Shown here one piece after another: positions 19,036 to 60,065 of a stretch of DNA of 64,000 nt (positions are counted from its first letter, which is position 1; each line of letters begins with the position of its first letter). The stretch comes from a virus. Location of the stretch: positions 1 through 64,000 of IMG/VR virus record IMGVR_UViG_3300022916_000006. One strand, written 5' to 3'. The translations under genes and the position numbers were made by a program. Below the pieces are notes generated by a model. That model saw only the letters and a list, made by a program, of their open reading frames with translations, had not been told where the DNA came from and searched no databases.

Positions 19036-21552
19036 ATGTATCAAAATATACACATTACAAGATTAAAAAACGCATATAAAGTTCATCTATGGGATGATGC
19101 TGATGGATATTCAGAATATATACACAAAACATATGCATACGTAAAAAATACTAAGGGTAAATATCTATCATTATATGGTGATAAAGTTAAAAAGGTTGAC
19201 CATTGGAGTAAAGAAGACTTACAAGCAGGTAAGATATTTGAAAGTGATATCCCACCAGAAACACGAGTCTTAATTGATAAATATGGTGAATCTGATGAAG
19301 TATCAATTAATCATAGAGAATTATATTTTGATATAGAAACTGAAGTAACACAAGGATTTCCTGATAAAAATAGAGTGGATAATAAAATAACATCAATAGC
19401 ATTATATGATAAATCAAAAGATGCATATTGTGTATTTATCACATCAGAAGATAATTTAAATTATATAGAAGATAATGTAACGGTGGAATCGTTTGATACT
19501 GAAGAATTAATGTTACATCGATTTTATGAAGAATATGTGACAATATCACCTACCATATTGAGTGGTTGGAATATTGATGGATTTGATGTTCCATATTTAT
19601 ATAATAGAACGAATAGATTGTTTGGTGAAGAATATGCAAATTCACTATCTCCCATCGGAATTGTTCAATATAATGAGTATAGTGATACATATAAAATTGC
19701 AGGAGTATCTTGTTTGGATTATTTAGCATTATATAAAAAGTTTGCAATTAAACAACAATCTTCATATCAATTGGGTGCCATTGGTCAACTTGAGGTTGAC
19801 ACAGGTAAGATTGAATATAGAGGATCATTGAATGATCTATATAAAAATGATATTAAAAAGTTTATTAAATATAACTTAAATGATGTTGTAATTATTAAAA
19901 AATTAGATGATAAATTAAAATATATTGAAATTGCTATGGGTATTGCTCACATTGGACATGTGCCATATGATACCATATATCATAGTAGTAGATATCTTGA
20001 TGGTGCAATTCTTACATATTTGAAGAAAAATAATATAATAGCACCGAATAGAAAACAAATAACAAAAGAAGCTAAAGATTCACATTTCAGTGGTGCATAT
20101 GTAAAAGAACCAATTCCTGGTAGATATGATTGGGTATATGATTTGGATTTGACATCAATGTATCCAAGCATAATTATGTCATTAAATATATCACCAGAAA
20201 CTAAAATAGGTAAATTTGAAAATTGGGATGATACATCTCTCATTGATGAAAATAAAGATGATCATATATTTATAAAAACCGATGGTACTAAATATGAATT
20301 GACACATAGTAAGATGAGGGAAATACTTGATAATAACGAGATGACCATTTCATCAAATGGAGTGATGTATGATAATGATCGAGTAGGAGTGATTCCTACA
20401 ATATTGAACACTTGGTTTGATCAACGAGTGCATTATAGAAAGTTAATGGCACAATATGATGAGTCTGGTGATATTAAACAGAGAGATTTTTATGATAAAC
20501 GTCAACATGTTCAAAAGATTATATTGAATAGTTTGTATGGTGTATTAGGATTATCAGTATTTAGATTTTATGATATTGATAATGCTGAGGCAACTACATT
20601 GACTGGTCAAGCTCTTATTAAATATACTCAAAAGATGGCTAATTATTATTATAATAATGAATTGAACGATGATAAGGATCATGTAATATATACAGATACT
20701 GATTCAATATATTGTTCTGCTGTACCAATAATAAAGAATAGATTTCCTAATATAGATGTGTCAGATGATAAAATTATGACAGAAAAAATATTGGATGTAA
20801 CATCAAATGTGCAAACATTTATTAATAAAAGTTATGATATGTTTGCTGATAAACTTTTAAACTGTAAATCGCATAAATTTAACATAAAGCAAGAAGTGAT
20901 TTCAAAATCAGCATTTTGGGTTACTAAAAAAAGATATGGTCAATGGATTATAAATGATGGTGGGACTCCATGTAATAAATTAGATGTTAAAGGACTTGAT
21001 ATTGTTAAAAGTAATTTCCCAGTATCATTCAGAGGTATTATGACTAAATTGTTAAATGGGATATTAAATCATGATCCTAAATCTCAGATAGATGATATGT
21101 TATCAAATTTTAAAATGAAAATGAAAACATTACCATTAAGTGATATTGCATCTCCAACTGGAGTAAATAATATGAAAAAATTTAAACATAAACCTAGGAC
21201 AATATATAATTCAAATATGATATTCACGAAGACTAAAAAAGGAGCACCAGCTCATGTCAAAGCTGCTATAGTTTATAATGATTTATTGGAATATTTTAAA
21301 CTTACGAATATAGTACCAATTACTAGTTCAGATAAGATAAGATGGGTATATTTAATAGAAAATCCTCTAAACATAGAACAGATTGCATTTAAGGGATATG
21401 ATGACCCTGAAGAAATCATGAGTTATATTAATATGTATGTTGATCGTAATAAAATATTTAACAAATTATTGCAGAAAAAGATAGACATGTTTTATGATAG
21501 CATGAGTTGGGTATTTGTTGATACTCAAAATACATTAGAACGTTTTTTTTAA
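19036..21552 (+). CDS. Family B DNA polymerase (gp43-like)
   Basis: Exonuclease motifs FDIET and GWNIDGFDVPY; polymerase motifs DLDLTSMYPSI, KIILNSLYG, YTDTDS, KKRY; C-terminal QNTLERFF. Confidence 0.97.
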   Translation: MYQNIHITRLKNAYKVHLWDDADGYSEYIHKTYAYVKNTKGKYLSLYGDKVKKVDHWSKEDLQAGKIFESDIPPETRVLIDKYGESDEVSINHRELYFDIETEVTQGFPDKNRVDNKITSIALYDKSKDAYCVFITSEDNLNYIEDNVTVESFDTEELMLHRFYEEYVTISPTILSGWNIDGFDVPYLYNRTNRLFGEEYANSLSPIGIVQYNEYSDTYKIAGVSCLDYLALYKKFAIKQQSSYQLGAIGQLEVDTGKIEYRGSLNDLYKNDIKKFIKYNLNDVVIIKKLDDKLKYIEIAMGIAHIGHVPYDTIYHSSRYLDGAILTYLKKNNIIAPNRKQITKEAKDSHFSGAYVKEPIPGRYDWVYDLDLTSMYPSIIMSLNISPETKIGKFENWDDTSLIDENKDDHIFIKTDGTKYELTHSKMREILDNNEMTISSNGVMYDNDRVGVIPTILNTWFDQRVHYRKLMAQYDESGDIKQRDFYDKRQHVQKIILNSLYGVLGLSVFRFYDIDNAEATTLTGQALIKYTQKMANYYYNNELNDDKDHVIYTDTDSIYCSAVPIIKNRFPNIDVSDDKIMTEKILDVTSNVQTFINKSYDMFADKLLNCKSHKFNIKQEVISKSAFWVTKKRYGQWIINDGGTPCNKLDVKGLDIVKSNFPVSFRGIMTKLLNGILNHDPKSQIDDMLSNFKMKMKTLPLSDIASPTGVNNMKKFKHKPRTIYNSNMIFTKTKKGAPAHVKAAIVYNDLLEYFKLTNIVPITSSDKIRWVYLIENPLNIEQIAFKGYDDPEEIMSYINMYVDRNKIFNKLLQKKIDMFYDSMSWVFVDTQNTLERFF

Positions 21553-21565
21553 AAAAGGAGTTAAC

Positions 21566-22093
21566 ATGATAAAATATAACATAGCAAAAGAATTTAACTT
21601 TGATTATGGGCATAGGGTATGGCCTCAAAAACTAAATTCTGAATTTAGCTTAGATTGTGAATTGGCGTGTAGACATTTACATGGACATAGAGGTACTGTA
21701 ATTGTTCACTTAGAATCAGAGGAGTTGGATAACCAAGGAATGGTGACTGATTTTCATCATTTAAATTGGTTTAAGAAGTTCCTAGATGATGCAATTGATC
21801 ATAAATTTATATTGGATAGAAATGATCCGTTGTTACTTGATTTATTTCCACTATTGGTATTGGAGGAAATGAAAGAATATGCAGTAGCTAACTTAAATGA
21901 TGTACCAGTATTATTGTGGGAAATATATGAAGGATTAGTTATAGTTGATTTTATACCAACTTCAGAAAATATGGCAAAGTGGTTATTAGATATTGTTAGC
22001 CATAAAATGAAACCATTATCTGTATTGGTATCTCATATAGAATTTTTTGAAACACCAAAATCACAAAGTGTATGTTATCAAGGAACTATGTAA
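21566..22093 (+). CDS. queD: 6-carboxy-5,6,7,8-tetrahydropterin synthase
   Basis: FDYGHRV, CRHLHGH, DFHHL, DHKFI, PTSEN, ETPKS. Confidence 0.92.
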   Translation: MIKYNIAKEFNFDYGHRVWPQKLNSEFSLDCELACRHLHGHRGTVIVHLESEELDNQGMVTDFHHLNWFKKFLDDAIDHKFILDRNDPLLLDLFPLLVLEEMKEYAVANLNDVPVLLWEIYEGLVIVDFIPTSENMAKWLLDIVSHKMKPLSVLVSHIEFFETPKSQSVCYQGTM

Positions 22094-22840
22094 ATGAATT
22101 ATAATGATATTATTCCCGTAAATGAAGTGTATCCATGTATACAAGGTGAGGGTAGATTAATTGGTGTTCCTCATCTTTTAATCAGAACTACTGGATGTAG
22201 ATTGAAATGTCAATTCTCTGGAGGATCATTTTGTGATACACCATATAGTAGTTGGAATCCTGAAAAGGGTAAATTCTCATTAAATAATATAGTTGATATA
22301 TATAAGGAATTTCCTAATATACGTCATACTATGATAACTGGTGGAGCTCCAACTTTACATTCAAAGTTATTACAAGAATTATGTACAATTGGAAAAGAAT
22401 TTGGGCACTATATTACAATTGAAACAGAGGGTAGTGAATATGTATATACTAAAGCTGATTTGATATCATTATCACCAAAACTATCAAATTCAATTCCAAT
22501 ACCTGGATCAAAAATGGGACAACAAACTGTGACAGATAATGATAGACGGCAACACGTTAAATGGTATAGAAATATAGAAGCTATGAAGGATTTAATAAAA
22601 CACCATCATGATTATCAAATTAAACCAGTAATTTCACAACAATCAGATTTGAATGAGGTTGAAGAATTATTGAAAGAATTAGATGTAGCAAAATGTAAAG
22701 TATATCTAATGCCAGAAGGATTGACTAAAGATCAATTGGAGAGTAGAAGAAAGTGGTTAATACAATTGTGTATTGATCGTGGTTATAATTTCACTGATAG
22801 GCTACATATAATAGCTTATGGTGATAAACGAGGAGTTTAA
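22094..22840 (+). CDS. queE: 7-carboxy-7-deazaguanine synthase (radical SAM)
   Basis: IQGEG, IRTTGCRLKC...FCDT, ITGG, IETEG, LSPKL, RLHI. Confidence 0.92.
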   Translation: MNYNDIIPVNEVYPCIQGEGRLIGVPHLLIRTTGCRLKCQFSGGSFCDTPYSSWNPEKGKFSLNNIVDIYKEFPNIRHTMITGGAPTLHSKLLQELCTIGKEFGHYITIETEGSEYVYTKADLISLSPKLSNSIPIPGSKMGQQTVTDNDRRQHVKWYRNIEAMKDLIKHHHDYQIKPVISQQSDLNEVEELLKELDVAKCKVYLMPEGLTKDQLESRRKWLIQLCIDRGYNFTDRLHIIAYGDKRGV

Positions 22841-22841
22841 T

Positions 22842-23456
22842 ATGGGAACAAAGAAACCATCAAGTAATAAATTATTTAATAAACAATTTTCAAAGGGTAA
22901 AGTAGGTGAAGAATATTTTGAACATGTAATAGCTAAAGATTATTTTGATGAATTATACATGTATAATGATTTTAATAATCCTGTTGACAGGCGATATCAG
23001 ATTGATGGCATAGATGGGTATATAAAGGATAATAAGTGGGATAACAAATATTTTATAGAGATTAAAAGTAATTTGACATATAATCCAATACTTAAAGATT
23101 TTTCAGCTTGTTTAGAATTTAATAAGTGGGATATAAGTGAACAACAACATCATGGAAATGATGAGGAAGAGGGATATATTCAGGATTCAAAGGCACATCG
23201 AATTTATCATCTGGAAGTGATAAATACGAAAAATACAAAATCAGGATTTGTGGGCACTGGAAATTGGGTATATTATGATTTACCAACGATGAGAAATTTT
23301 ATACACCGTGAATGGAATAAACCAAAGGCAACAAATTGGATACGTGCCCTATCGTTTGTTGGAGGATATAATTCTAATTATGCAAGATTAATTTCAATGT
23401 CAGTAAAGGATTCTAGGTTCCCACTTCACAATAAGCGGTCTATAACATACAGATGA
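22842..23456 (+). CDS. Putative PD-(D/E)XK nuclease within the deazaguanine cluster
   Basis: GKVGEEYF...QIDGIDGYI...FIEIKSN follows the E..D..ExK layout. Start reassigned to ATG 22842, which follows an AGGAG RBS. Confidence 0.5.
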
Positions 23457-24079
23457 TAAAAAAAATAAAAAGTAATGAAAATATAATTAGATCAACATCA
23501 GATCGAGATGAGATGTTGTTGGATGCTACTAAATATTATGGTAAGTTTCTTGATAGTTTGGGATTCGATTGGAAACATGACCCTAATATGATGGATACTC
23601 CAAATCGTGTAGCTAAAATGTTCATTGATGAATTGTATGCTGGAAGTTTTAATGCACCACCAAATATAACAGCATTTGATAATGTAGATGGATATGATGG
23701 TATGGTGTTTCAAGGAAATATTAAGATGCAATCTACTTGTAGTCATCATGCAGTTCCGTTTGTTGGAGTTGCCCATATAGCATATATCCCATCAGCTGAT
23801 GGTAAAATAATAGGTTTGAGTAAATTAAATAGGATTGTTGAATATTATGCAAGAAGACCACAAGTTCAAGAAAACTTAACTATGCAAATACATTCACATG
23901 TTGATCAAATGTGTGAGGGAAATATAGGAGTAGCTGTTATGATAGAAGCAAATCATATGTGTGTGCAAGTGCGTGGGGTGGAACATGATTCTATAATGAA
24001 GACTACTAAATTATCAAAAAGATTCTTAACAGAAGATAAAGTATTAAATGAACTTTATCAATTTATAAATGGACAATAA
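23453..24079 (+). CDS. folE: GTP cyclohydrolase I
   Basis: [32 protein letters not shown]. Confidence 0.95.
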
Positions 24080-24082
24080 TAA

Positions 24083-24745
24083 ATGAGTAAAATTAAGAAA
24101 GTAATTATATATTCTGGTGGATTAGATTCATATACGATGTTGATGGATTTATTGTATAAAAACAAATCTATATCAGCCATATCATTTGATTATGGACAGC
24201 GACATGATAAAGAACTTGAGTTTGCTAAACGAGTGTGTAGTAAACATGATATTGAGCATATAGTTGTTGACATAAATTCAATAAATAAACTAATGCAAGG
24301 ATCATCATTAACATCTGATATTGATATACCAGAAGGACATTATGAAGATGAAAACATGAAATCGACAGTTGTACCAAATAGAAACATGATCTTCATATCG
24401 CTTGCAACAGCCTATGCTGTGTCAATAGGGGCGAATGAAGTGTGGACTGGTGTACATGCTGGAGATCATGCGATATACCCTGATTGTCGGGGTGAATTTA
24501 TTGATAAAATAAATGAAGTTACTAAAATTTCAAATTATGAATCTGTTGAAGTAAAAGCTCCATTTATTGAAATGTCTAAAATAGGTATAGTAGATATTGG
24601 TAAACGATTGGGAATTGATTATTCTGATGCATGGACCTGTTATAAGGGTAATGAATTTGCATGTGGAAAGTGTGGATCATGTCAGGAAAGACTTGAAGCA
24701 TTTGATCAAAATGACATTAAGGATCCGATGAGATATGAAACATAA
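24083..24745 (+). CDS. queC: 7-cyano-7-deazaguanine (preQ0) synthase
   Basis: SGGLDS, YGQRH, VPNRN, YPDC, CY...[10 protein letters not shown]. Confidence 0.95.
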
Positions 24746-25421
24746 TTCTGGTGATGAAAAGTTAATACCAATGTTAGAATGGGGAGTACCAGCTGATATT
24801 CAAGGAAGTGATGAAATTGTTTTAAATTCACCAATAATGATCAAGGCACAAGAAAAGATTATTGAATTATTTAAACCAAAAAGTAATACTGCATTTGTTT
24901 CATTATGTACTTCAACTAGACCATATTCATCAGGAAGAAAATGGAACAAATTCATAAAAGAATTTAATGATGTTGATTTTATAATATCATCAAATGGTGG
25001 TGTAATTCCCATTGAATATGAAAATTCATATCCATATTTGACTTATGATGCACATGGTACGATAGAATATGATGAGGTATATAAATTATATACGACAAGA
25101 AATTTAATAAGATTTTTTATACTTAAAAAATATGAGAATATAGTATTTAATTTCAGACCTAATTTAAGAAATAGTAAATCTGCAAAAATTGCTGGGGATT
25201 ATCTTTTTGAAAAAGGACATATAAAAAGTTATTGCATTATACCAAATATTGATTTGTATAATGAGGCACAGAATGATGGATTTACAAAACTTGGATTGTC
25301 AATGTATCCAGATTTACATCCAATAATATTGACAAAATTAAAAGAATCAGTGATTAAATATACAAAAAATACAACGATAAAAAAAGAAAAGGATGAAAAT
25401 GATATTAATTTATTTTGGTGA
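24735..25421 (+). CDS. ArcS-like (DUF5591-type) protein, possible archaeosine-forming amidinotransferase
   Basis: [17 protein letters not shown] resembles the ArcS LPCSxxKPYS motif; lies between queC and dpdA. Confidence 0.55.
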
Positions 25422-25456
25422 ACTATCAATCAAAACTCACACTGGAGGAAGATATA

Positions 25457-26647
25457 ATGAGTAACTTTATTTATATACCATCATTCTTTTCTGGTGAATA
25501 TGGTGGGACTATGAAAAAGAATTTTAGATTTTCTAAATCTAATATGACATGTAGATATTATGCTGATGATTTTCCAGAAAAATATCAACATAAATATGCT
25601 TTGATTAGTGCAGGTGCAAATTCATCAAAAACATATAGACACGACTTGGGATTAGACAATTCATTTGTGTTGGGTGATTCTGGTGGTTATCAAATAGCGT
25701 CTGGTGCAATGAAGTGGGATATTAAACATAGAGATAGAATTTTTAACTGGTTAGAAACTAACTCAGATGTTGCTATTAATTTGGACATTCCACCACGAAT
25801 GAAATATGCTGGTAAATTTAATGAATGTTTGGATATTAGTAAAGATAATTTTAAATATTTTTATGAAAATCAAACTGGAAATACTAAATTTTTAAATGTA
25901 TTGCAAGGTGAAAATGAACTATCTTATTTAAATTGGTATAATGGTGTGAAAGATTTCCAGTTTAATGGATGGAGTATTGGAGGAGTTCGGGGTAATTTAT
26001 ATAGAATGTTATCAGGCATATATACTTTAATTAACAATAAAGAACATTTGAATCTTAATAATGATTATTTTCATATATTGGGGGCATCTAGGGTTAGAGA
26101 CTTTTTAATGTTAATTCAATTGCAAAAATCACTTGAGGATATTGGATCAAATATAACGGTTACTACAGATAGTTCAACACCAGATAGGCACGTAGTGTAT
26201 GGATTATATTTCATTAATTATAGCATTAAGCATGAAAATTTAGATGCTATTACGTTTCCAAATGGAAGCAATAATCCAGATATTATTGATTGGTTTAAGA
26301 CAACGAATCAAACTATACCCAAATTTACAGAATTTGATAATATAATAGGGGAAGAATTTTCATGGAAAGATGTTGCTGATTGGAATTTAGATTGTAAGAT
26401 TGGTATGAGATTGCATAATTTTTATTTATTAAAAGATGCAATTCAAGCAATTACTTGGTTAGTGTATGGGCATGATTACATATTGAAACAAAGTATAAAT
26501 TCTAATACATATAAAATTTTACAGTCAATTGATGAGATGGTGAAATCAAGTAATCCAACAAAGATATTTGAAAAATATAAACCATTATATATGAAATTAA
26601 GTAATATGTCAATTAAAACTGATGTTAAAAATCACGATTTTTTTTAA
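25457..26647 (+). CDS. dpdA: DNA 7-deazaguanine transglycosylase (TGT fold)
   Basis: LGDSGGYQ, NLDIPP, NVLQG, WSIGG, HILG, TTDSS; next to preQ0 genes. Start reassigned to ATG 25457, which follows a GGAGG RBS. Confidence 0.8.
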   Translation: MSNFIYIPSFFSGEYGGTMKKNFRFSKSNMTCRYYADDFPEKYQHKYALISAGANSSKTYRHDLGLDNSFVLGDSGGYQIASGAMKWDIKHRDRIFNWLETNSDVAINLDIPPRMKYAGKFNECLDISKDNFKYFYENQTGNTKFLNVLQGENELSYLNWYNGVKDFQFNGWSIGGVRGNLYRMLSGIYTLINNKEHLNLNNDYFHILGASRVRDFLMLIQLQKSLEDIGSNITVTTDSSTPDRHVVYGLYFINYSIKHENLDAITFPNGSNNPDIIDWFKTTNQTIPKFTEFDNIIGEEFSWKDVADWNLDCKIGMRLHNFYLLKDAIQAITWLVYGHDYILKQSINSNTYKILQSIDEMVKSSNPTKIFEKYKPLYMKLSNMSIKTDVKNHDFF

Positions 26648-26664
26648 AGAAAGAGGAAAGTTAA

Positions 26665-27390
26665 ATGCAGAAAAATAAATTAGATACGTTCATTCAAAAA
26701 TATAATTTGGGTGGAACTATAAATAGTGTAAAATGGATGTCAGATGGGTCCAGATTGATAACCAAATTTATGAGTGAAGACAAGTCATTGATGGGGAAAG
26801 TATGTTTAGATAATTTTAAATTTGATCCCGTGGAGATAGGGATATATCAAACTGATCAATTGAAATCATTATTGGGAGTATTGGGGGATGATATAAATTT
26901 AACATTAGTTAAAGTTGACGATAAACCAGTAGCACTTAAAATAAAGCATAAATCAACTTCAATAGATTATATGTTAACTGATACTGATATAATAGATGAT
27001 CCACCTAATATGAAACAGATTCCAAACTTTGAAACAAAAATTAAATTAAATAGTGATTTTATTTCTACATTCATTAAAGGCAAAAATGCATTATCTGATG
27101 TAAATACATGTACACTTATTGATAATACTGATACTAAAAGTGTTGATGTTGTTATTGGATTCTCATCTATTAATACTAATCGAATTAATATTGCTACTGA
27201 AACATTAATTAATGGAATTGATGATAATATATCGTTTAATGCTAATTTATTTAAAGAAATATTAATAGCAAATAAGGAATGTAAATCAGCCATTTTGGAA
27301 ATATCAAATAAGGGATTATTAAAAATTCAATTTAAAACTGATGATTATACATCTAATTATATGGTAGTTGCTACTCAAAATATAGGATAA
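26665..27390 (+). CDS. DNA sliding clamp (gp45-like)
   Basis: Size of 241 aa, FIQKYNLGG..NSVKW N-terminus, IGIYQTDQLKSLL; near the clamp loader genes. Confidence 0.75.
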   Translation: MQKNKLDTFIQKYNLGGTINSVKWMSDGSRLITKFMSEDKSLMGKVCLDNFKFDPVEIGIYQTDQLKSLLGVLGDDINLTLVKVDDKPVALKIKHKSTSIDYMLTDTDIIDDPPNMKQIPNFETKIKLNSDFISTFIKGKNALSDVNTCTLIDNTDTKSVDVVIGFSSINTNRINIATETLINGIDDNISFNANLFKEILIANKECKSAILEISNKGLLKIQFKTDDYTSNYMVVATQNIG

Positions 27391-27394
27391 TGTA

Positions 27395-28750
27395 ATGAAT
27401 AATGATGATAAACAATCATTTATTATCCACAATGGTAATTGTTTGGATGTTATGAAAACTATGGAGGATAATTCAGTGGATTCCATTGTAACTGATCCAC
27501 CATATGGATTGGTTGGAGTTTCACGAAATGGTAGTAGCCAACCTGGAGATTTAGAAACTCCATATGGTAGAAGTGGGCCAAGCAAGAAACGAGGATTTAT
27601 GGGGTTTGAATGGGATGGACAAATACCTTCAGTTGAAATATGGAAAGAATGTTTGAGAGTGTTAAAACCTGGAGGTCATTTATTATCATTCGCTGGAACT
27701 AGAACACAACATAGAATGGCAGTAAATATTGAAGATGCTGGATTTGAAATTAGAGATATGATTTCATGGGTGTATGGTAGTGGATTTCCTAAGAGTCATA
27801 ATATAAGTAAAGCAATTGATAAAATGGCTGGAGTAAAAAGAGAAGTTATTGGTCAAAATCAAGTTATTTTAAATAAACAAAAGAAAGAGTTTGAGTGTGG
27901 TATTCGTAATGTGAAATCTGTCATGAATAAAGGAGCACCAGAAAGGAATAATGGATTTGTAACATTATCTGCTGATATTACTAAACCAGCTACTCCAAAC
28001 GCAATCCAATGGGAAGGTTGGGGTACTGCATTAAAACCAGCATTTGAACCAATTACAGTAGCAAGAAAACCAGTATCAGAAAAGACTATTGCAAAGAATG
28101 TATTAAAACATGGTACAGGTGGGATTAATATTGATGGGTGTAGGATTGAATTAAATGGTGATTATAAATGTAAAGCTAACGGGAGACCGTCACAAACTGG
28201 GTTATCTGATAATTATAATTCAGAACAAGCAAATCAACAAGATACAAAAGGTAGATTTCCAGCTAATTTTATTCATGATGGTAGTGATGAAGTTGAAGAA
28301 TTGTTCCCTAATACGAAAAGTGGTGCGATAAAAAAAGGAACGTTAGCTGGCACAAATAATAATTTATATGGTGCTTATAAAGGATATAAAAGTGAAGAAT
28401 TTAAAAAGAGTGAAGGTTCAGCATCAAGATTTTTCTATTGTGCAAAAACTAGTAAAACAGATAGAAATGAAGGATTGGATGATCAATTAAATAATCATCC
28501 TACGGTTAAACCAACTAAACTTATGCAATATCTTGTAAGATTAGTAACTCAGCCAAATGGTATTGTATTGGACCCATTTATGGGAAGTGGATCAACTGGT
28601 AAGGCATGTAAATTGGAAGGATTCAACTTCATTGGTATTGATTTAGATGAAAATTATTGTGAAATTGCTGAAGCTAGAATAAAATTAGCAGAAATATCAT
28701 ATAAAAATGAAGAAATAAAAAAACAAAATACATTAGAAAGGTTTATGTAA
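27395..28750 (+). CDS. DNA adenine-N6/cytosine-N4 methyltransferase (beta class)
   Basis: DPPY catalytic motif precedes the LDPFMGSGSTG SAM-binding motif; HPTVKP; C-terminal QNTLERFM. Confidence 0.93.
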   Translation: MNNDDKQSFIIHNGNCLDVMKTMEDNSVDSIVTDPPYGLVGVSRNGSSQPGDLETPYGRSGPSKKRGFMGFEWDGQIPSVEIWKECLRVLKPGGHLLSFAGTRTQHRMAVNIEDAGFEIRDMISWVYGSGFPKSHNISKAIDKMAGVKREVIGQNQVILNKQKKEFECGIRNVKSVMNKGAPERNNGFVTLSADITKPATPNAIQWEGWGTALKPAFEPITVARKPVSEKTIAKNVLKHGTGGINIDGCRIELNGDYKCKANGRPSQTGLSDNYNSEQANQQDTKGRFPANFIHDGSDEVEELFPNTKSGAIKKGTLAGTNNNLYGAYKGYKSEEFKKSEGSASRFFYCAKTSKTDRNEGLDDQLNNHPTVKPTKLMQYLVRLVTQPNGIVLDPFMGSGSTGKACKLEGFNFIGIDLDENYCEIAEARIKLAEISYKNEEIKKQNTLERFM

Positions 28751-28752
28751 AA

Positions 28753-29682
28753 ATGAATAATAATAATAACAATAACGATCATACATTATGGGCTGAAAAA
28801 TATAGACCTGTTAACTTGGATACTTACATTGGTAATCAACATTTGAAAGATAAAGTAACTAGATATATTAAGAGTGGAGATGTTCCACATTTATTACTAT
28901 ATGGTGTGGCTGGTACTGGTAAAACAACATTAGCTAAAATCATTGCAAATTGTATTGCATGTGATAAGTTATATATAAATGCAAGTGATGAAAATAATGT
29001 TGATAATGTTCGAACTAAAATAAAGAACTTTGCATCGACTATTGGATTTCAAGATTTGAAAATTGTTATATTAGATGAAAGTGATTTTCTTACACCAAAT
29101 GCACAAGCGGCATTAAGAAATCTAATGGAAACATTTTCTAAACATTGTAGATTTATATTAACATGCAATTATGTTGAACGCATAATTGATCCAATACAAT
29201 CCAGATGTCAATCTTATAAAATCATACCACCATCAAAACGAGATGTTGGAATGCATATGGTTAAAATGTTAGATGCTGAAGGTGTTAAATATGAGATGGG
29301 TGATATTGCAGAAATAATACATGTGAGTTATCCTGATATTCGTAGAGTGATAAACTCAACACAACGACAAGTAATAGATGGTGGGTTAATTATAGATAAA
29401 ACATCAATCATTCAAAATGATTATAAAAATAAGCTATTAGATTTGATTAAATCAAATGCAAAACTATCAGAAATACGACAATTGATTGTTGATACCAATC
29501 TATCAGATTATACAGATTTATATAGATTCTTATATGACAAGTTAGATGAGTTTTCAAATGGTCAGGATGTTGGTTGCATATTAGCATTAGCAGATGGTCA
29601 ATATCATGATAGTTTTGTAGCTGATCATGAAATTAATTTTATGGCAACGATGGTGAAGTTGTTAGAAGTTATTAGGATTTAA
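28753..29682 (+). CDS. Clamp loader large subunit (RFC/gp44-like)
   Basis: LWAEKYRP, GVAGTGKT, INASD, ILDESD, FILTCN, IQSRC. Confidence 0.95.
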   Translation: MNNNNNNNDHTLWAEKYRPVNLDTYIGNQHLKDKVTRYIKSGDVPHLLLYGVAGTGKTTLAKIIANCIACDKLYINASDENNVDNVRTKIKNFASTIGFQDLKIVILDESDFLTPNAQAALRNLMETFSKHCRFILTCNYVERIIDPIQSRCQSYKIIPPSKRDVGMHMVKMLDAEGVKYEMGDIAEIIHVSYPDIRRVINSTQRQVIDGGLIIDKTSIIQNDYKNKLLDLIKSNAKLSEIRQLIVDTNLSDYTDLYRFLYDKLDEFSNGQDVGCILALADGQYHDSFVADHEINFMATMVKLLEVIRI

Positions 29683-29683
29683 T

Positions 29684-30127
29684 GTGAGCCCATTTGATTG
29701 GATCAATCAGATATTGGTGTATAGAAAACCGTGGGAATCGTTCTCTGAAGCAGAACAGAAATCATTCTCATCATATATGGTGAATAGAATATTATCTATG
29801 GATATGGAATTCTTAGATATAGTGAATTTATTTCAAAAATATGCAATTGGTACACTTGAACGTAGAGAAGTGTATAAATGGTATTGTGCTGTATTACCAA
29901 CAGGTAAAAGGTACAATAAATATATAAAAAGAAAAAATGAAAATAAATACCCAAAATGGTTAGTTGAATTGTTGACAAAGCATTATGAATTGGGTAGTAA
30001 TGATGTTATTGATTATTTAGATATATTATATAAGACTATTGATGGTAAATGTGTCCTTAAGGATATACTTATTAGATATGGTACAGACTCTAAAAAGATT
30101 AAAACATTAAAACTGGAGAATAAATAA
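29684..30127 (+). CDS. Clamp loader small subunit (gp62-like)
   Basis: PFDWINQI...FSSYMVNRILSM...YNKYIK; directly follows the large subunit. Confidence 0.75.
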   Translation: MSPFDWINQILVYRKPWESFSEAEQKSFSSYMVNRILSMDMEFLDIVNLFQKYAIGTLERREVYKWYCAVLPTGKRYNKYIKRKNENKYPKWLVELLTKHYELGSNDVIDYLDILYKTIDGKCVLKDILIRYGTDSKKIKTLKLENK

Positions 30128-34273: not shown

Positions 34274-34531
34274 ATGAATAAAAATAAGAAATTTGCAGAT
34301 GCATTAAAAATTGTAACTGATGAAATAAAAAAAGACCCTGGATTATATATAAGCTATCAATCAAATATAGCTATGATGTTCTATGATACTGTTCTTGATG
34401 ATGCTTATCAAGAAAGAAAATCTCATATAGAAGTAAAAGATATGCATAGATTAGTAAATGAGGCATCAGATAACTTTTTAAGAAGATGGTGTGAATTTAC
34501 AGATGCTGAATGGGTAGCTAAAAAATTATAA
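34274..34531 (+). CDS. Hypothetical protein
   Basis: Operon-packed ORF (YQSNIAMMFYD...EASDNFL). Confidence 0.7.
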   Translation: MNKNKKFADALKIVTDEIKKDPGLYISYQSNIAMMFYDTVLDDAYQERKSHIEVKDMHRLVNEASDNFLRRWCEFTDAEWVAKKL

Positions 34532-34538
34532 GGATAAT

Positions 34539-35888
34539 ATGAAAAAACAAATTGCAATATGTGCTCCAGTCACATCAAAATCTGGATATGGGGCACACTC
34601 AAGAGATATAGTAAGAGCAATATTAAGTCTAAATAAATATGAGTTAAAGATACTTGATGTTAGATGGGGTAGTTGTCAAAGAAATGCATTAGATGAAATT
34701 AAAGATAAGAATATCATTGATTGTTTTTCTGATCAATTAACAAGAAAACCAGATGCATATATTGATATTAGAATACCAAATGAATTTGAACAGATATGTG
34801 ATATAAATATTGGAATAACAGCTGGGATTGAAACAACATCAGTATCAACTAAATGGATTGAAGGTTGTAATAAAATGACATCAATTATAGTTCCATCAGT
34901 GCATTCTGCTAATTCATTTCTTAATACATCATATGATATGTTAGATACCAAAGATAATAATAAAAAGATTGGATCACTTAAAGTTGAAAAGCCAATGCAT
35001 GTTATTTTCGAGGGTGCTGATGCAAATATATATAAACCACTTAAAGTGAATGAGATGGATACTAATATATTGAAATTGTTGAATGATACAATATCAGAAC
35101 AGTTTTGTTTCTTATTTGTTGGTCAATGGGGTAAAGGTAATATGGGTGAAGATCGAAAAGATATTGGCACATTAATTAAAACATTCATTGAAACATTTGC
35201 TAATAGAAGCAAACAACCTGCCTTGATTTTGAAAACAAATGGTGCTGGATATTCATGTGGTGAAGAATCAAATATAATCAATAATATAAATTTAATTAAA
35301 GCAATGTTTCCAGATACTGTGAAAATGCCAAATATATATTTATTGCATGGTGATCTAACAGATGATGAAATGAATAGTTTATATAATCATCCAAAAGTTA
35401 AAGCGATGGTATCATTTACACATGGTGAAGGATATGGAAGACCATTATTGGAAGCGACTATGGTTGGATTACCTGTCATTGCATCTGATTGGAGTGGACA
35501 AAAGGATTTCTTAACTGGTGAACATTCAATATTGTTGGGTGGAGAATTGCAACAAATACCACAAAATATTGTGTGGAAAGATATTCTAATTCCTGAAAGT
35601 GCATGGTTTAATATCAATATAGATCAAGCACGACAATCACTATCATACATGTTTTCGAACTATATGATTATGAAACGTAAGGCTGAAACATTAATGCGAA
35701 TGAATAGAGACAAGTTCACATTGAAGAAGATGGCAGTTCAGTTTGATAAATATCTTGATAGTATTTTTAATTCCTTTGGTGAACAACAAATAAAATTACC
35801 AGAAAAGATAAAATTACCAAAATTGAAAAAAGTTGAAAAACCACAAAAAATTGAATTACCTAAATTAAAGCGAATTGTGAAAAAATAA
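34539..35888 (+). CDS. Glycosyltransferase, GT-B (GT4-like)
   Basis: SKSGYGAHSRD, FLFVGQW, RKDIG, HGEGYGRPLLEA, SDWSGQKDF. Confidence 0.9.
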   Translation: MKKQIAICAPVTSKSGYGAHSRDIVRAILSLNKYELKILDVRWGSCQRNALDEIKDKNIIDCFSDQLTRKPDAYIDIRIPNEFEQICDINIGITAGIETTSVSTKWIEGCNKMTSIIVPSVHSANSFLNTSYDMLDTKDNNKKIGSLKVEKPMHVIFEGADANIYKPLKVNEMDTNILKLLNDTISEQFCFLFVGQWGKGNMGEDRKDIGTLIKTFIETFANRSKQPALILKTNGAGYSCGEESNIINNINLIKAMFPDTVKMPNIYLLHGDLTDDEMNSLYNHPKVKAMVSFTHGEGYGRPLLEATMVGLPVIASDWSGQKDFLTGEHSILLGGELQQIPQNIVWKDILIPESAWFNINIDQARQSLSYMFSNYMIMKRKAETLMRMNRDKFTLKKMAVQFDKYLDSIFNSFGEQQIKLPEKIKLPKLKKVEKPQKIELPKLKRIVKK

Positions 35889-35895
35889 GGAAAAC

Positions 35896-36366
35896 ATGGA
35901 ACAAAATAGAATAACAACAAATTGCCCACTGTGTGATTCATTGGGAACATTAGATGTAGTGACATTACCAAGTACAATACAGAATATGCAATGTATATCA
36001 TGTGGGTATACAACTTCAACAGATTATGATGCAACAAATATGGAATTTCATACTGCATATATTAATATTGAAGAGAAATTAAAACAACATATCAAGATTA
36101 AAAATGATACCTTTTGGATTCCAATTGTTATGATGTTACCAAGTGGAGCTATTACACCATCTGCTAGTAAAGATGATTCATTAAAATGGAATGTATCTCT
36201 ATTGGTAGATATTCCAGAAGAAGAACAGTTTGCTTATCCAGATAGTACGGGTGGTTTTTATCAACAGAGGTATGATGTAGAACATTATGTTATTTTTGAC
36301 ACGTTCAAAGGTGCATTAAATTCATTAATAGATTTGAACAATAGAATTGCAGATAATAGATCATAG
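35896..36366 (+). CDS. Hypothetical Zn-binding protein
   Basis: CPLC...CISCGY. Confidence 0.7.
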   Translation: MEQNRITTNCPLCDSLGTLDVVTLPSTIQNMQCISCGYTTSTDYDATNMEFHTAYINIEEKLKQHIKIKNDTFWIPIVMMLPSGAITPSASKDDSLKWNVSLLVDIPEEEQFAYPDSTGGFYQQRYDVEHYVIFDTFKGALNSLIDLNNRIADNRS

Positions 36367-53408: not shown

Positions 53409-54108
53409 TATAGTACAGAATTTCATATGCACATTGGACACTCGGTTGAAAATACTACAAGACAATATATCTAAATATTCTGAAGTATTCACTGATTGTA
53501 ATTTTGTTGTTAATTTTAATGATACAGTTAATTTTGACATAATAAATCATTTATATTCAACTGAACTTGATATAAATGGTGATGTATTTCTATTCAATAA
53601 TCTAATACGAGATTGGGCATTGACTACATTATCAATGATGGAATATGTTAATACTCCATATGTATTATATCTATGTGAAGATCAAGTTCCGAATATGACC
53701 AAATTAGATTTTGATAATATTATAAATGAATTTTCAGATGAGCTGGATATGGATTATATGTTGTTAACAAGAATAGGTAAATATACAGAAGATATATATA
53801 CTAAAAATTACACTGAACATAAATATGGATATTCGTATTTATGTGAAAATGCACCACATAAGAGATTATCATTAGATGCAATATATAGAACTGATTTTTT
53901 CAAAGAACGATTGGAAGAGTTCATATTGAATCATGATAAGTGTACACATGATATACCATTTAGACAGATAAACTTACCAAATTTTTATGAAGGTTATTAT
54001 GACTTTTATAATGGAACAGCAAGATTTAGTGGAGTGAAATGTTACATACCGAAACAGAATATATTAGTGGAGTACAACGATGAACGTGAAAAATATACCT
54101 ATATCTAA
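53398..54108 (+). CDS. Putative glycosyltransferase-like protein
   Basis: Island context; YVLYLCED DxD-like motif. Confidence 0.45.
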   Translation: MKISIVQNFICTLDTRLKILQDNISKYSEVFTDCNFVVNFNDTVNFDIINHLYSTELDINGDVFLFNNLIRDWALTTLSMMEYVNTPYVLYLCEDQVPNMTKLDFDNIINEFSDELDMDYMLLTRIGKYTEDIYTKNYTEHKYGYSYLCENAPHKRLSLDAIYRTDFFKERLEEFILNHDKCTHDIPFRQINLPNFYEGYYDFYNGTARFSGVKCYIPKQNILVEYNDEREKYTYI

Positions 54109-54364
54109 TCCATTTTATATTATTCAATATAAACCAATGGGATTTTCTGTAAATCCAGTATATGTTGTTATTGATTTAACTCAAGTGGATGATTCAGATA
54201 TTAGAGAAGCACGAAAATTTGCAACAAAAGAATTAGCAGCCAAAGAAATACTTAATATTGTATATGAAGAAATGTTCGACATAGATGATGCGAGAGACTT
54301 GTTTACAATTATAGAGCATACTGTAGAGACAATAGAATCTACACATGTAGCTCAATTATTATGA
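54080..54364 (+). CDS. Detached member of the YY(I)I...ELxxxLL small-protein family
   Basis: FYIIQY, EARKFATKELA, C-terminal THVAQLL. Confidence 0.65.
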   Translation: MNVKNIPISNPFYIIQYKPMGFSVNPVYVVIDLTQVDDSDIREARKFATKELAAKEILNIVYEEMFDIDDARDLFTIIEHTVETIESTHVAQLL

Positions 54365-56115
54365 AAATAACAACAGTGAATACATTAGACTTTGATTTAT
54401 TAGAAATCATAAAGGATAAATCAAATAGAGTAATTGATGGAGTGAATCATGGTAGAATTACTTACTATGATCGTATAAGGGATCGATATATAAAGATATT
54501 TGATGAGGACTACTGTAGACTATCATATTTTAAGAACGCTATTAAATGTGGATATTATGATACATTAGCTCCAGCACTATCATCGGTCATATTTGATAAT
54601 GGCAATATAATTGGTTATATAACGAATGCTGGTAAAGTGTTAAATGATTTAAATCTATTAAAAGAATATGAAAATAAAATAATTGATGTATGTGATGCAA
54701 GTGGATTATTTTATTATGATTTAGTTCCAGAAAATGTAATACAATTACCAAATGGTGAGTTAAGCTTAATTGATTTGGATGGTGTATATGATATTTCAGA
54801 TTACAGTTTGATGAATTCACATAATGCAGAAATCAAACCAAATACATTAAAAAAATATATACAACAAAAATGGAGTGATAAATATATGAAGCCAATTAGT
54901 TTTATAATACCAAGCAGAACAAATCTAAAATATTTAAAACAAGCATATAATTCAATAAGACAAAATCTACATCCAATGCATGAAATTTGTATTGCCGATG
55001 ATGCTTCAACAGATGATACTTGGAAGTGGTTGACTGAAAAAGTCAAAACAGATGTTAATTTAAAATTATATAAAAATGAAGGTCCAGATAGATTAGGTCA
55101 CACAATATTATATGATACATTGGTGAATGAAATATCAACAAAGGATATTATCTGTATATTTCATGCTGATATGTATGCATGTAAAGGATTAGATGATGAG
55201 TTTATTAAATATCTAAAGCCAAGTGTAGTTGTGTCAGGTACTCGAATTGAACCACCATTACATCCAGACGGTCCTGAAAAGATAATAAAAGATTTTGGAA
55301 TAGAACCAGAAGAATTTAAAGAAAGTGAATTAAACGATTTTGTTGAAAATTTAAAAAATCAACATAGAACCAAATTAACAAATGGTATATTTGCACCCTG
55401 GGCTATGTATAAAGATGACTTTCAATCAATTCATGGACACGATCCATTATATGCCCCACAATCAAAAGAAGATTCGGACATCTTTAATAAGATGCATCTT
55501 GCTGGATATGATTTTATTCAGACTTGGAATGGTTTTGTATATCATATGACATGTCGTGGAAGTAGATTTGCTGATGGTGCAAAGAGAAATCCAAATGGTG
55601 AAGTATTTATGAAAAATCGTGAGACTGATGAATGGTTGACTCAGAATAAAAAATCACATAGAAACTTCATTCGTAAATGGAGCTCAACGGTATTACATGA
55701 TGCATATTTGAAACCAATAGTAAAGAATAAATATAATATTGGATTAGTAATATCAAATGCTAACTATGAATTAATTGAAATACTTGAACCATTCTTTGCA
55801 ACATTATATGTAGATTGTGATTTTAAAATATATGTTGACAATGAACAACCAAACACATTATATTCAATGATGGATAGAGTACAGAATATTGATGTTACAC
55901 CACATAATGATATTGTTGTAGAATTCGATGCATCAAAATTAACAAATGAATTGCTCAATGAATTCTTGATAAAATTATCAGATGTGATTGCAGATTCTGG
56001 TGAAATTGGTGAGTTCGAATATGAGATATTTAAAATAAAAATAAAAAGTGTTTCATCATATCAAAAAGATTTATTATATTATGATAACAATATAATCAAT
56101 AAAAGAGCGTTTTAA
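54361..56115 (+). CDS. Kinase-like domain fused to a GT2 glycosyltransferase
   Basis: YIKIF, YYDLVPENV, LIDLDG; then ISFIIP, IADDASTD, FHADM, EDSD, VYHMTCR. Confidence 0.8.
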   Translation: MKITTVNTLDFDLLEIIKDKSNRVIDGVNHGRITYYDRIRDRYIKIFDEDYCRLSYFKNAIKCGYYDTLAPALSSVIFDNGNIIGYITNAGKVLNDLNLLKEYENKIIDVCDASGLFYYDLVPENVIQLPNGELSLIDLDGVYDISDYSLMNSHNAEIKPNTLKKYIQQKWSDKYMKPISFIIPSRTNLKYLKQAYNSIRQNLHPMHEICIADDASTDDTWKWLTEKVKTDVNLKLYKNEGPDRLGHTILYDTLVNEISTKDIICIFHADMYACKGLDDEFIKYLKPSVVVSGTRIEPPLHPDGPEKIIKDFGIEPEEFKESELNDFVENLKNQHRTKLTNGIFAPWAMYKDDFQSIHGHDPLYAPQSKEDSDIFNKMHLAGYDFIQTWNGFVYHMTCRGSRFADGAKRNPNGEVFMKNRETDEWLTQNKKSHRNFIRKWSSTVLHDAYLKPIVKNKYNIGLVISNANYELIEILEPFFATLYVDCDFKIYVDNEQPNTLYSMMDRVQNIDVTPHNDIVVEFDASKLTNELLNEFLIKLSDVIADSGEIGEFEYEIFKIKIKSVSSYQKDLLYYDNNIINKRAF

Positions 56116-56390
56116 TGAAATATCCATGTTATATAGTCAAGATGAAGTCAACCAACAATATGGCGTTTAGTTGTAGTCCAGCATATTTAACCAAAGCATC
56201 AACAGGTGTTGTGACTGGTAAAATATGGATAGATTCTAATATTAATGATGCTATTAGATTTGAAAGAAACGTAGATATAAAAAACTTACATAAACATGAA
56301 ATTCCAATTAATTTATCAATATTAGTGGCTAAATATGGCGAACCAATGAAAATAAATTCAGAAGCTGAATGGGTAGCAATGATGTTATGA
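56115..56390 (+). CDS. Small-protein array member 1
   Basis: MKYPCYIV...DAIRF...SEAEWVAMML. Confidence 0.75.
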   Translation: MKYPCYIVKMKSTNNMAFSCSPAYLTKASTGVVTGKIWIDSNINDAIRFERNVDIKNLHKHEIPINLSILVAKYGEPMKINSEAEWVAMML

Positions 56391-56605
56391 AATATTATAT
56401 GATATATGATCCAGGTATGAGTGCCACCGAATTAAAATTTGTTTTTTATAATAGAGCATTGACTGTTTATAAATATACAACTGACTTTAGCAATAGTGAT
56501 ATTGTAGTATCAGATTCTAGAGATAAATTAAATAGTAATAGTGGTAAACGTTGGGGAAATGTTAAAGTATTTTCTGAAAATGAAATTATACCATATATAT
56601 TGTAA
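56387..56605 (+). CDS. Small-protein array member 2
   Basis: MKYYMI...SENEIIPYIL; start reassigned to the ATGA overlap at 56387. Confidence 0.75.
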   Translation: MKYYMIYDPGMSATELKFVFYNRALTVYKYTTDFSNSDIVVSDSRDKLNSNSGKRWGNVKVFSENEIIPYIL

Positions 56606-56610
56606 AACAT

Positions 56611-56835
56611 ATGAAATATTATATTATAAGACCCAAGACAGATATAAAAAATCCATATATTGCCCAAATGTCTAAGAATGATTATTATGCTACCCGTAAT
56701 GTTGAAGACATTGTATCATTTAAAACCAAGTCTGAAGCTCAAAGAGTGATAGCACATGAAAGTATGAGGTATCCTGAGTTCTGGTGTGATGCTTATGTGA
56801 TAGATGAAAATGAACTGATACCCCATCTGTTATGA
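56611..56835 (+). CDS. Small-protein array member 3
   Basis: MKYYII...FKTKSEA...DENELIPHLL. Confidence 0.8.
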   Translation: MKYYIIRPKTDIKNPYIAQMSKNDYYATRNVEDIVSFKTKSEAQRVIAHESMRYPEFWCDAYVIDENELIPHLL

Positions 56836-57062
56836 AATATTATATTATACGAATAAGTGATAATGAAAACCATTACAAATATGTTATGACAAGTGGATCA
56901 GGGTTACATTATGGGGCATCACCAGACTATACAAGGATAACAGCATTCAAGTCCAAAACACAAGCACAAAACATAATAACTGCAGGCTGTAAACGTGATA
57001 TGAATTTTTGGCATGATATGGTGGTAGTAAATGAGAATGAATTGGTTGCACATATTTTATGA
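56832..57062 (+). CDS. Small-protein array member 4
   Basis: MKYYII...FKSKTQA...NENELVAHIL. Confidence 0.8.
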   Translation: MKYYIIRISDNENHYKYVMTSGSGLHYGASPDYTRITAFKSKTQAQNIITAGCKRDMNFWHDMVVVNENELVAHIL

Positions 57063-57313
57063 AACGTTATTATATTGTATGGAAATATGTTGATATTGAT
57101 AAGAGTTCAGTTGGAAATTGGCTCTGGCATTATGCTTACATGCGTAAGTATGTAATTGATGATGAACATGATGTTTTTTATTGGACATTTAATATAAATG
57201 AAGCACGGGTTTTTAATTATAAACTTTATGCTAAATGGTACATGTGGAGTCGAAAACGAACAGCTCATATGTGTATATTATCAGAACAAGAATTAGTATT
57301 GAAATTATTATGA
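57059..57313 (+). CDS. Small-protein array member 5
   Basis: MKRYYIV...EARVF...SEQELVLKLL. Confidence 0.8.
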   Translation: MKRYYIVWKYVDIDKSSVGNWLWHYAYMRKYVIDDEHDVFYWTFNINEARVFNYKLYAKWYMWSRKRTAHMCILSEQELVLKLL

Positions 57314-57522
57314 ACAAATATTATATTGTATATCGTGTTAGTAGCTCAAATGAGTACGTATATAGAGGATCGAATGGGTGGTTGAGTACAACAAATGATA
57401 GAAAAATTATACCATATGAATCATATGAACATGCTATGGTGGATTATGTTGGGTTGCATTGGGATATAGCGGATAACACATCAATAATGGATGAAATTGA
57501 ATTGCTTGCTAAATTATTATGA
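57310..57522 (+). CDS. Small-protein array member 6
   Basis: MNKYYIV...YESYEHA...DEIELLAKLL; start reassigned to the ATGA overlap at 57310. Confidence 0.8.
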   Translation: MNKYYIVYRVSSSNEYVYRGSNGWLSTTNDRKIIPYESYEHAMVDYVGLHWDIADNTSIMDEIELLAKLL

Positions 57523-57833
57523 ACAAAACGCTCAAACCAAGAATATATCCATATTATGTATTAAGATTAAAAGATGGTAAAAAAGGATATGCATCTCAAG
57601 TACATCATCGTAAAACATCTCACATATTTAGACGACAATTTGGATCATTTAAACAAACAGTCAAGCGACCTAAGATAATACATTCAGTGGATATGTTGGA
57701 AGCTCATAAATTTAAAACCTTTATTGAAGCATATGCTATGTGCAATATTAGTGTGAAATGGACCAATGAAGATAGTTTATATGATATAATTAAAATATCA
57801 GATGAAGCATGTGAAATGGTATATTTATTATGA
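57519..57833 (+). CDS. Small-protein array member 7
   Basis: PYYVL...EAHKFKTFIEA...EACEMVYLL. Confidence 0.8.
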   Translation: MNKTLKPRIYPYYVLRLKDGKKGYASQVHHRKTSHIFRRQFGSFKQTVKRPKIIHSVDMLEAHKFKTFIEAYAMCNISVKWTNEDSLYDIIKISDEACEMVYLL

Positions 57834-58072
57834 AACATTATATAATATATAAAGATGAAAGAGATAGTGGATATGTTCAATATGATATTACGGCAAATTC
57901 TTATGAATTAACTAAAAATATTAATAATATTATTGGATTTGATTCCAAAAGAAAAGCACAATTTATGATTACAGAGAGAATTAATTATTGTATTAAGCGT
58001 GGGTATAATTATCACTTCTGGAGTTATGTAACAATAGTGACAGAAAGTGAATTGGTTGCATATTTATTATGA
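57830..58072 (+). CDS. Small-protein array member 8
   Basis: MKHYII...FDSKRKA...TESELVAYLL. Confidence 0.8.
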   Translation: MKHYIIYKDERDSGYVQYDITANSYELTKNINNIIGFDSKRKAQFMITERINYCIKRGYNYHFWSYVTIVTESELVAYLL

Positions 58073-58311
58073 AATATTATATTATAGCAATAAAGGGTGA
58101 TACAACATATTACAGATCATATTTCTTAAGGAGACATGAAGATATATATTCATACTGGTCAATAAAATTTAAAAAAGCAATAGAATTTATATCTAGGGAT
58201 GAAGCAACTAAGTTTACAAAAACTCATAGCTATAAATATACAGTTGGTGTACCATCTATGAGTGATCTTAAAATTGTATCAGAAACTGAATTAGTTGCAT
58301 ATTTATTATAG
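58069..58311 (+). CDS. Small-protein array member 9
   Basis: MKYYII...KAIEFISRDEA...SETELVAYLL. Confidence 0.8.
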   Translation: MKYYIIAIKGDTTYYRSYFLRRHEDIYSYWSIKFKKAIEFISRDEATKFTKTHSYKYTVGVPSMSDLKIVSETELVAYLL

Positions 58312-59690: not shown

Positions 59691-60065
59691 ATGATAAAGT
59701 TACAATTAGAGACTATTAGAAATATAATTCAACATTATGATGTGGAATGTTCTGTGATCATCACATCCAATGCAGATTTCTATGCTATGTACAATGTGGA
59801 CACAAACACTATTACGATATCGAGAGATGATAATAACTCAATAGCCAGATTAGTGAAATCACTATTGCATGAAATTCAACATGCAATCACTGCTAAAGAA
59901 CTTGGTAAAGAAAAATATAAAATTGATTATGAATTGGAAATGGAAGTGTTAATGCAAAAAGGATACTCTCATGAAAAAGCATATAAAAATAATAAATATG
60001 AGAAGATTGCCAACAAGTTTGCAAAAGATAATTTAAAAAAAATAAAAAAGTTGTTTTTTTATTGA
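59691..60065 (+). CDS. HExxH zinc metalloprotease-like protein
   Basis: SLLHEIQHA, with distal NKYEKIA. Confidence 0.7.
   Translation: MIKLQLETIRNIIQHYDVECSVIITSNADFYAMYNVDTNTITISRDDNNSIARLVKSLLHEIQHAITAKELGKEKYKIDYELEMEVLMQKGYSHEKAYKNNKYEKIANKFAKDNLKKIKKLFFY

Follow-up and report, generated by a model that had tools for sequence, protein, structure and literature searches.

The uncultured phage IMGVR_UViG_3300022916_000006, an IMG/VR record, has a whole genome of 113,597 bp, of which positions 1-64,000 are analyzed here (the window, to which all coordinates of this phage refer). Between positions 19,036 and 30,127, its plus strand carries a family B DNA polymerase gene (polB), queD, queE, orf212, folE, queC, a gene for an ArcS-like protein (DUF5591), a dpdA-like gene, the gene for a sliding clamp, a DNA methyltransferase (MTase) gene, and the genes for the large and small clamp loader subunits, in this order. 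An earlier note, made from the sequence alone, had pointed out the order dpdA, clamp, MTase, clamp loaders, which we found as described, and had drawn attention to the C-termini of four of these proteins. Our subject is the C-terminal tail that the polymerase and the MTase have in common, and the possibility that it docks the MTase on the clamp. The features on which the argument turns are listed below.

19036..21552, plus strand: family B DNA polymerase (PolB) of the T4/RB69 gp43 type, 838 amino acids (aa), stop codon at 21550-21552 (Pfam DNA_pol_B, 1.6e-39; exonuclease domain, 1.5e-21)
21526..21549, plus strand: PolB C-terminal tail QNTLERFF, a presumed clamp-binding peptide (conserved in relatives; T4 gp43 precedent)
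26665..27390, plus strand: predicted sliding clamp, two-domain PCNA/gp45-like protomer, 241 aa (AlphaFold2 fold, Foldseek, gene context)
27395..28750, plus strand: beta-class N6_N4 DNA MTase with a DPPY motif, 451 aa (Pfam N6_N4_Mtase, 1.8e-36; phrog_67, 2.9e-81)
28679..28747, plus strand: MTase C-terminal appendage, a Lys/Glu-rich linker (residues 429-443) followed by the tail QNTLERFM at 28724-28747 (alignments, model confidence)
28753..29682, plus strand: clamp loader large subunit (phrog_168, 1.6e-79)
29684..30127, plus strand: clamp loader small subunit (phrog_225, 6.8e-16)

A C-terminal tail common to the polymerase and the methyltransferase

PolB ends in QNTLERFF (21526-21549) and the MTase in QNTLERFM (28724-28747), just as the earlier note had reported, and seven of the eight residues are identical. 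The two tails have the 15-mer CAAAATACATTAGAA in common, which occurs in the window at 21526 and 28724 only, with a chance expectation of 0.06 matches; among the open reading frames (ORFs) of the whole genome, NTLERF is present in PolB and the MTase only. Seven identical residues at an equal distance from the C-terminus of two unrelated proteins are far beyond chance. Exactly 4 of the 112 plus-strand ORFs of at least 100 aa end in F[F/W/M], where composition predicts 0.36. The four are PolB, the MTase, the DpdA-like protein (KNHDFF, ORF 25415-26647) and the ArcS-like protein (DINLFW, ORF 24735-25421), the last two ends also being those originally noted, and all four are read as acting on DNA.

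The closest relatives of PolB among solved structures are the RB69 and T4 gp43 polymerases, with RB69 gp43 as the best match in the PDB (E 3e-73). To follow the tail, we used 80 related IMG/VR loci gathered via the clamp gene (46-61% identity), which include 76 PolB C-termini. The end [TS][LI]x[RK]FF was kept in 75 of these 76 related PolBs (41-62% identity) and was found on no ORF other than PolB in the 80 loci; conservation on this scale marks the PolB tail as a functional element. A search of the C-terminal 238 residues of PolB against the PDB gave zero matches. The earlier note had taken the tails for a PCNA-interacting (PIP) box with its leading Q. PolB of this phage fits that consensus, but the Q position is variable among related PolBs (Q, K, I, A or V), in which the conserved core is [TS][LI][ED][RK]FF and only L-x-x-F-F of the box is kept. 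We therefore rejected the canonical PIP box, Q-x-x-[LIM]-x-x-[FY]-[FY], because of this variability and because the MTase ends in Met, not in an aromatic residue.

The clamp ORF had no match in Pfam, PHROG or NCBIfam, and its only sequence-profile match in the PDB, the RB69 gp45 clamp (1b77/1b8h), was weak (E 0.023). An AlphaFold2 model built from an alignment with 28 relatives had a mean predicted local distance difference test score (pLDDT) of 92.9 and a predicted template modelling score (pTM) of 0.90, and the best Foldseek matches of this model were PCNA chains (TM 0.7-0.8, E about 1e-13, probability 1.00). The model identifies ORF 26665-27390 as a clamp of the PCNA/gp45-like fold. The 80 related loci have polB, clamp and clamp loader genes in this order, with the clamp gene between the other two, and in the present phage the clamp-loader genes adjoin the clamp and MTase genes.

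The methyltransferase carries its tail as an appendage

The MTase matched PF01555 with 126.6 bits (gathering cut-off, 26.7), and residues D34-P35-P36-Y37 are invariant in the alignment. The enzyme is probably adenine-specific; NCBIfam adenine MTase models match it below their cut-offs. The last invariant core residue of the alignment is R428, after which residues 429-443 form a 15-residue, Lys/Glu-rich stretch that cannot be aligned, followed by the 8-residue motif. In a search of 5.8 billion proteins, no homologue exceeded 61% identity, a fragment of this phage itself excepted; the alignments to all homologues end at about residue 430-437, and the confidence of the MTase model (pLDDT) drops to 59, and then to 52, in the last residues. 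Alignments and model together point to a tail appended on a probably flexible linker.

In related phages, polB, clamp and clamp loader genes are present with no MTase gene between them, which makes the MTase gene an insertion in this lineage. A PF01555 search of five long contigs of the closest relatives of the phage recovered only two unrelated MTase-like ORFs, without such tails. The proposal that the tail was copied from polB, also made in the earlier note, was not borne out: the 15 shared nucleotides are five codons, each of which is the commonest for its residue in this genome (P about 0.06 for such identity once the peptide is the same), and the two tails encode their Arg differently, by CGT and AGG, which differ at two positions. 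Since codon identity is expected at ~6% given the same peptide, the 15-nucleotide identity was set aside as weak proof of copying. Copying is possible; whether or not it took place, the tail peptide has been kept despite a change in its coding.

Clamp-motif-like ends were sorted into three classes, the L-x-x-F-F type, the Q-x-x-L-F (bacterial beta-clamp) type and the LF[ED]F type, and were found on 52 of 113 non-redundant MTase homologues vs 15 of 841 other phage ORFs taken as controls, with classes that were defined after the data had been seen and with homologues that are phylogenetically related, so that the counts are not independent. This family-wide enrichment is indicative only. The particular tail of the present MTase is missing in its homologues. 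Among cultured phages, MTase ends of the LF type occur in Caulobacter phage DMCA, Pontimonas phage phiPsal1 and a Cylindrospermopsis virus.

Polymerase and methyltransferase tails match within several other genomes

Every genome found with both a gp43-type PolB and an MTase was entered into a comparison set (n = 8, two mismatches included). The last 16 residues were scored in all PolB and MTase combinations, and the within-genome sum was compared with that of permutations. The observed sum was reached by 2 of 40,320 permutations (p = 5e-5), and five of the eight PolBs ranked their own MTase first. The ends in the genomes other than the present one were as follows.

Microcystis phage Mel-JY01: PolB ends in NLSKFFNFK; MTase contains NIAKFFNM
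IMG/VR locus L198: PolB ends in DNLFEF; MTase ends in DNLFEF
L204: PolB ends in TLEDFF plus one residue; MTase ends in TLEDFF plus one residue
L245: PolB ends in EWL; MTase ends in EWL
L241: PolB ends in QEWW; MTase ends in LFEW
Megaphage LR756508.1: PolB ends in QKFFSM; five MTase paralogues have H-x-F-W
Cyanophage P-TIM68: PolB end unmatched; MTase of another subfamily, unmatched

The sequence KFFN occurs near the C-terminus of PolB and the MTase only, of the 534 ORFs of Mel-JY01, and paralogous MTases within one locus have common endings (L048, L208 and L230). These comparisons indicate that the MTase tail tracks the tail of the polymerase of its own genome. A search for PolB in 20 IMG/VR contigs carrying MTase homologues returned none that was usable.

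Two of the genomes met in this survey have further peculiarities. The 484-kb uncultured megaphage LR756508.1 (L147/L148/L151/L154, about 257-302 kb) encodes a clamp that is 34% identical to the one described here, a PolB divided over ORFs that lie several kb from one another (introns, inteins or inserted genes may have split it), and five or more tandem MTase paralogues, all with the H-x-F-W end. In L035/L036, a relative of the present phage whose primase-helicase is 55% identical, the gene immediately upstream of the helicase encodes another MTase of this family (8797-10257 in L035), with the end QHDFF, which resembles that of the DpdA-like protein of the window (NHDFF) and not that of PolB.

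Ends of the 7-deazaguanine enzymes

Between polB and the clamp gene lie the genes of a 7-deazaguanine pathway.

21566..24745, plus strand: preQ0 synthesis genes queD, queE, folE and queC, with orf212 among them (Pfam PTPS, Radical_SAM, GTP_cyclohydroI, QueC)
24735..25421, plus strand: ArcS-like protein (DUF5591 only), extended by a linker of about 20 residues that leads to the tail DINLFW at 25401-25418 (Pfam DUF5591, 8e-11)
25415..26647, plus strand: putative DpdA-like DNA transglycosylase (probably divergent TGT superfamily) with the end KNHDFF at 26627-26644 (119 homologues, gene context)

Phage DpdA encoded together with FolE, QueD, QueE, QueC and ArcS or Gat-QueC is predicted to bring preQ0 or G+ into DNA by base exchange, and whether amidation precedes or follows insertion into DNA was left open (Hutinet 2019, PMC6884629). 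The present phage has the same gene set. Unlike that account, in which clamp coupling and C-terminal tails are unmentioned (PMC6884629), our comparison concerns DpdA homologues that nearly always end in FF or FW and a dpdA gene near polB and the clamp gene. The DpdA-like protein of the window had no match in Pfam, PHROG or NCBIfam, and a DpdA profile had zero matches among PDB sequences; its 119 homologues, at 48-61% identity, include some named queuine/archaeosine tRNA-ribosyltransferase, and Pfam TGT (PF01702) was matched weakly by 16 of 21 of the DpdA homologues (best E 1.2e-4). The gene clusters with the full preQ0 set folE, queD, queE and queC.

Within the last 8 residues, and after a polar, variable stretch, F[FW] was present in 117 of the 119 DpdA homologues. 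The ArcS-like protein matched NCBIfam ArcS at 2.6e-8, under its cut-off; most of its homologues end before the linker, and a hydrophobic end was found in 7 of 86, which makes its tail here a lineage-specific addition, as with the MTase tail, and not a family feature. The preQ0 synthesis enzymes, which act on small-molecule substrates and serve as an internal control, have no aromatic tail, and their homologues in loci L178-L195 are likewise without such tails. The dpdA gene of the relatives L190-L194 has polB and the clamp gene as its immediate neighbours and is preceded by a GT4-like gene, the product of which ends in [IM]E[KRE]WF plus two residues, near the PolB core motif; no such ends were found on FolE, QueD and QueE of these loci. 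The pattern that emerges from these sequences is one of tails on enzymes with a DNA substrate and of their absence from precursor-making enzymes. Five contigs of another phage type that carry DpdA, only 15-29% complete, yielded no clamp when searched.

Several neighbouring genes deserve mention. The product of orf212 (22818-23456), between queE and folE, had no family match; homologues 36-40% identical are located at the same place in the deazaguanine clusters of L185, L187, L188, L190, L193 and L195, which makes orf212 a conserved cluster member. The GT4-like protein (331-344 aa in L178-L195, e.g. L190:8974-10008) is always paired with dpdA, has weak Pfam matches under cut-off, and may be a DNA glycosyltransferase with the deazaguanine base as its target. 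An HNH endonuclease (L179:240-815; Pfam HNH_3, weak) beside a dpdA cluster ends in EHSFWEN, of the same H-x-F-W type as the megaphage MTases.

Other C-termini in the window

Three small ORFs with hydrophobic ends (646-978, 1985-2227 and 59691-60065) were considered as clamp clients and were not counted, having no relationship to gp33 or gp55 of T4; ORF 1003-1755 was also considered and proved to be a baseplate hub (phrog_150) instead. This baseplate-hub-like protein ends in DFFWPNI, and a 298-aa ORF of Mel-JY01 (35112-36008) ends in NFFWPK; both ends are probably a conserved structural C-terminus unrelated to clamp tails. A run of small ORFs (80-104 aa) at 34274-34531 and 54080-58311 has in common a conserved C-terminus resembling E-x-E-[LW]-V-A-x-L-L.

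Discussion

The closest parallel to these tails is found in T4, in which the C-terminus of the polymerase gp43 binds the clamp gp45 and the C-termini of gp43, gp55 and gp33 are similar, interchangeable, and all bind gp45 (PMC2988020). The three T4 tails are short, hydrophobic and acidic, form the very end of each protein, are joined to it by a flexible linker that varies, and are near-identical within the phage (PMC2988020). They are a direct precedent for the view that a protein other than the polymerase docks on the clamp when its tail resembles that of the polymerase. As in the T4/RB69 clamp clients, the phage described here has a terminal aromatic peptide on a variable linker, and its MTase tail is near-identical to that of the polymerase; unlike them, the clients here would be DNA-modifying enzymes (the MTase, the DpdA-like and the ArcS-like proteins), not transcription factors, and the motif is [TS][LI][ED][RK]FF rather than the LDFL type of T4. 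No gp33- or gp55-like protein with an NTLERF-type tail was found in the genome. A second parallel is the maintenance methyltransferase DNMT1, which is recruited to newly replicated DNA by a clamp-binding motif and PCNA (PMC9690074). The clamp fold here is PCNA-like and the tail has the L-x-x-F-F hydrophobic pattern; in contrast to DNMT1, a C5 MTase, the enzyme is a non-homologous beta-class N6_N4 MTase with the motif at its C-terminus. The tail also departs from the PIP consensus, in that related PolBs vary at the Q and the final aromatic residue is replaced by Met in the MTase. Phage Mu MuC binds the host beta clamp through terminal clamp-binding motifs, which couples its activity to replication (PMC12867686). 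MuC is likewise a non-polymerase phage protein with terminal clamp motifs, which in our case are predicted, but it is a transcription activator on the host beta clamp, whereas the present phage encodes its own clamp and the predicted clients are DNA-modifying.

Starting from what was observed (a tail common to PolB and the MTase and conserved in PolB, a neighbouring protein with a clamp fold, the appended position of the tail on the MTase, and covariation within genomes), and on the T4/RB69 precedent together with the comparative data, we infer that the partner is the clamp and the effect replication-coupled modification. We consider it rather likely that the MTase works as a client of the gp45/PCNA-like sliding clamp that the phage itself encodes. 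The flexible Lys/Glu-rich linker of about 15 residues would present a copy of the polymerase's peptide to a protomer of the clamp, at its hydrophobic pocket. With three such pockets per ring, and with clamps that remain on the DNA once the fork has passed, the MTase would be held on newly made duplex, slide along it, and methylate it promptly. Related linkers with Phe-Phe or Phe-Trp ends probably bring the DpdA-like protein to the same dock, and the ArcS-like protein as well in this phage, in which case 7-deazaguanine insertion would also be coupled to replication. The clamp-docking interpretation of the earlier note has gained comparative support from the conserved PolB tail, the gp43 type of the polymerase, the clamp fold, the matching of tails and the DpdA ends; the Q of its PIP box and the copying from polB have not gained such support, and the ArcS-like tail is no family feature.

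Several points weigh against clamp docking. Besides the post hoc motif classes and the non-independent counts of the family survey, about half of the MTase family is tailless, including the enzymes of Klebsiella phage e270.1, mycobacteriophages Eyeball and Palpatine, and Bacillus phage BSP18. Orthologues in which to trace the tail are missing, since the closest relatives of the phage do not have this MTase. The five MTases of LR756508.1 have a common HxFW end unlike the QKFFSM of its PolB, and the P-TIM68 MTase, from another subfamily, does not match its polymerase. In the present phage itself, the DpdA and ArcS-like tails have only the aromatic pair in common with PolB.

The evidence for a common partner, namely PolB conservation, covariation and the DpdA ends, is silent on the identity of that partner, and the tail could instead bind another replisome component, such as the single-strand-binding protein, the primase-helicase or the clamp loader, the last of which in T4 binds the same clamp face as gp43 (PMC2988020). 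We regard such a partner as unlikely, given that the homologous T4/RB69 polymerase tail is a clamp-binding element (1b8h is the RB69 clamp with that peptide) and that tail-bearing genes flank the clamp gene here and in relatives. It is similarly improbable, in our judgment, that the tails compete rather than tether, with those of the MTase, DpdA and the ArcS-like protein occupying pockets to time or limit polymerase access, or that they are a C-terminal stability or turnover signal of replication-phase proteins. A peptide near-identical to that of the polymerase would presumably contend for the same site, and sequence does not separate tethering from competition; however, the clamp has three pockets, the known clients T4 gp33, gp55 and DNMT1 are recruited and not inhibitory, and the presence of tails on DNA-substrate enzymes and not on preQ0-synthesis enzymes fits recruitment to DNA. 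That the tail is a functionless by-product of recombination of a 3' segment of polB onto an incoming MTase gene, as the 15 identical nucleotides and the status of the MTase as an insertion relative to related phages might suggest, is very improbable, in view of identical codons that are the commonest (P about 0.06), an Arg codon that differs at two positions and still encodes Arg, unrelated sequence on both sides of the 15-mer, the recurrence of tail-matching with different peptides in unrelated genomes, and the wide occurrence of tails in the MTase family.

Clamp-coupled maintenance methylation in eukaryotes and clamp-coupled late transcription in T4 and Mu are already known; our literature search returned DNMT1-PCNA, T4 gp33/gp55 and Mu MuC as clamp clients, and no phage MTase or DpdA so described. 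Docking of the MTase on the phage's clamp would add phage DNA-modifying enzymes, as a new class of client, to an established docking principle, a view well supported by comparison. More tentatively, phages with their own clamp may possess a "modification toolbelt", in which MTases, DpdA, glycosyltransferase-like and ArcS-like proteins, and perhaps some nucleases, are tailed and co-evolve with the polymerase peptide, hypermodification being coupled to the replisome; homologous MTases of clampless phages would bear tails of the host beta-clamp type (QxxLF), and the tail of the ArcS-like protein would mean that preQ0 is finished on DNA after insertion. If clamp docking is true, it would explain how a phage shields its nascent DNA from restriction quickly enough, and would confer processivity on DpdA, a base-exchange enzyme obliged to scan duplex DNA. 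It would also allow the DNA-acting enzymes of a modification pathway to be predicted and told from those that act on free precursors, and would supply a sequence rule, "ends like its own polymerase", by which replisome clients may be spotted in uncultured phages.

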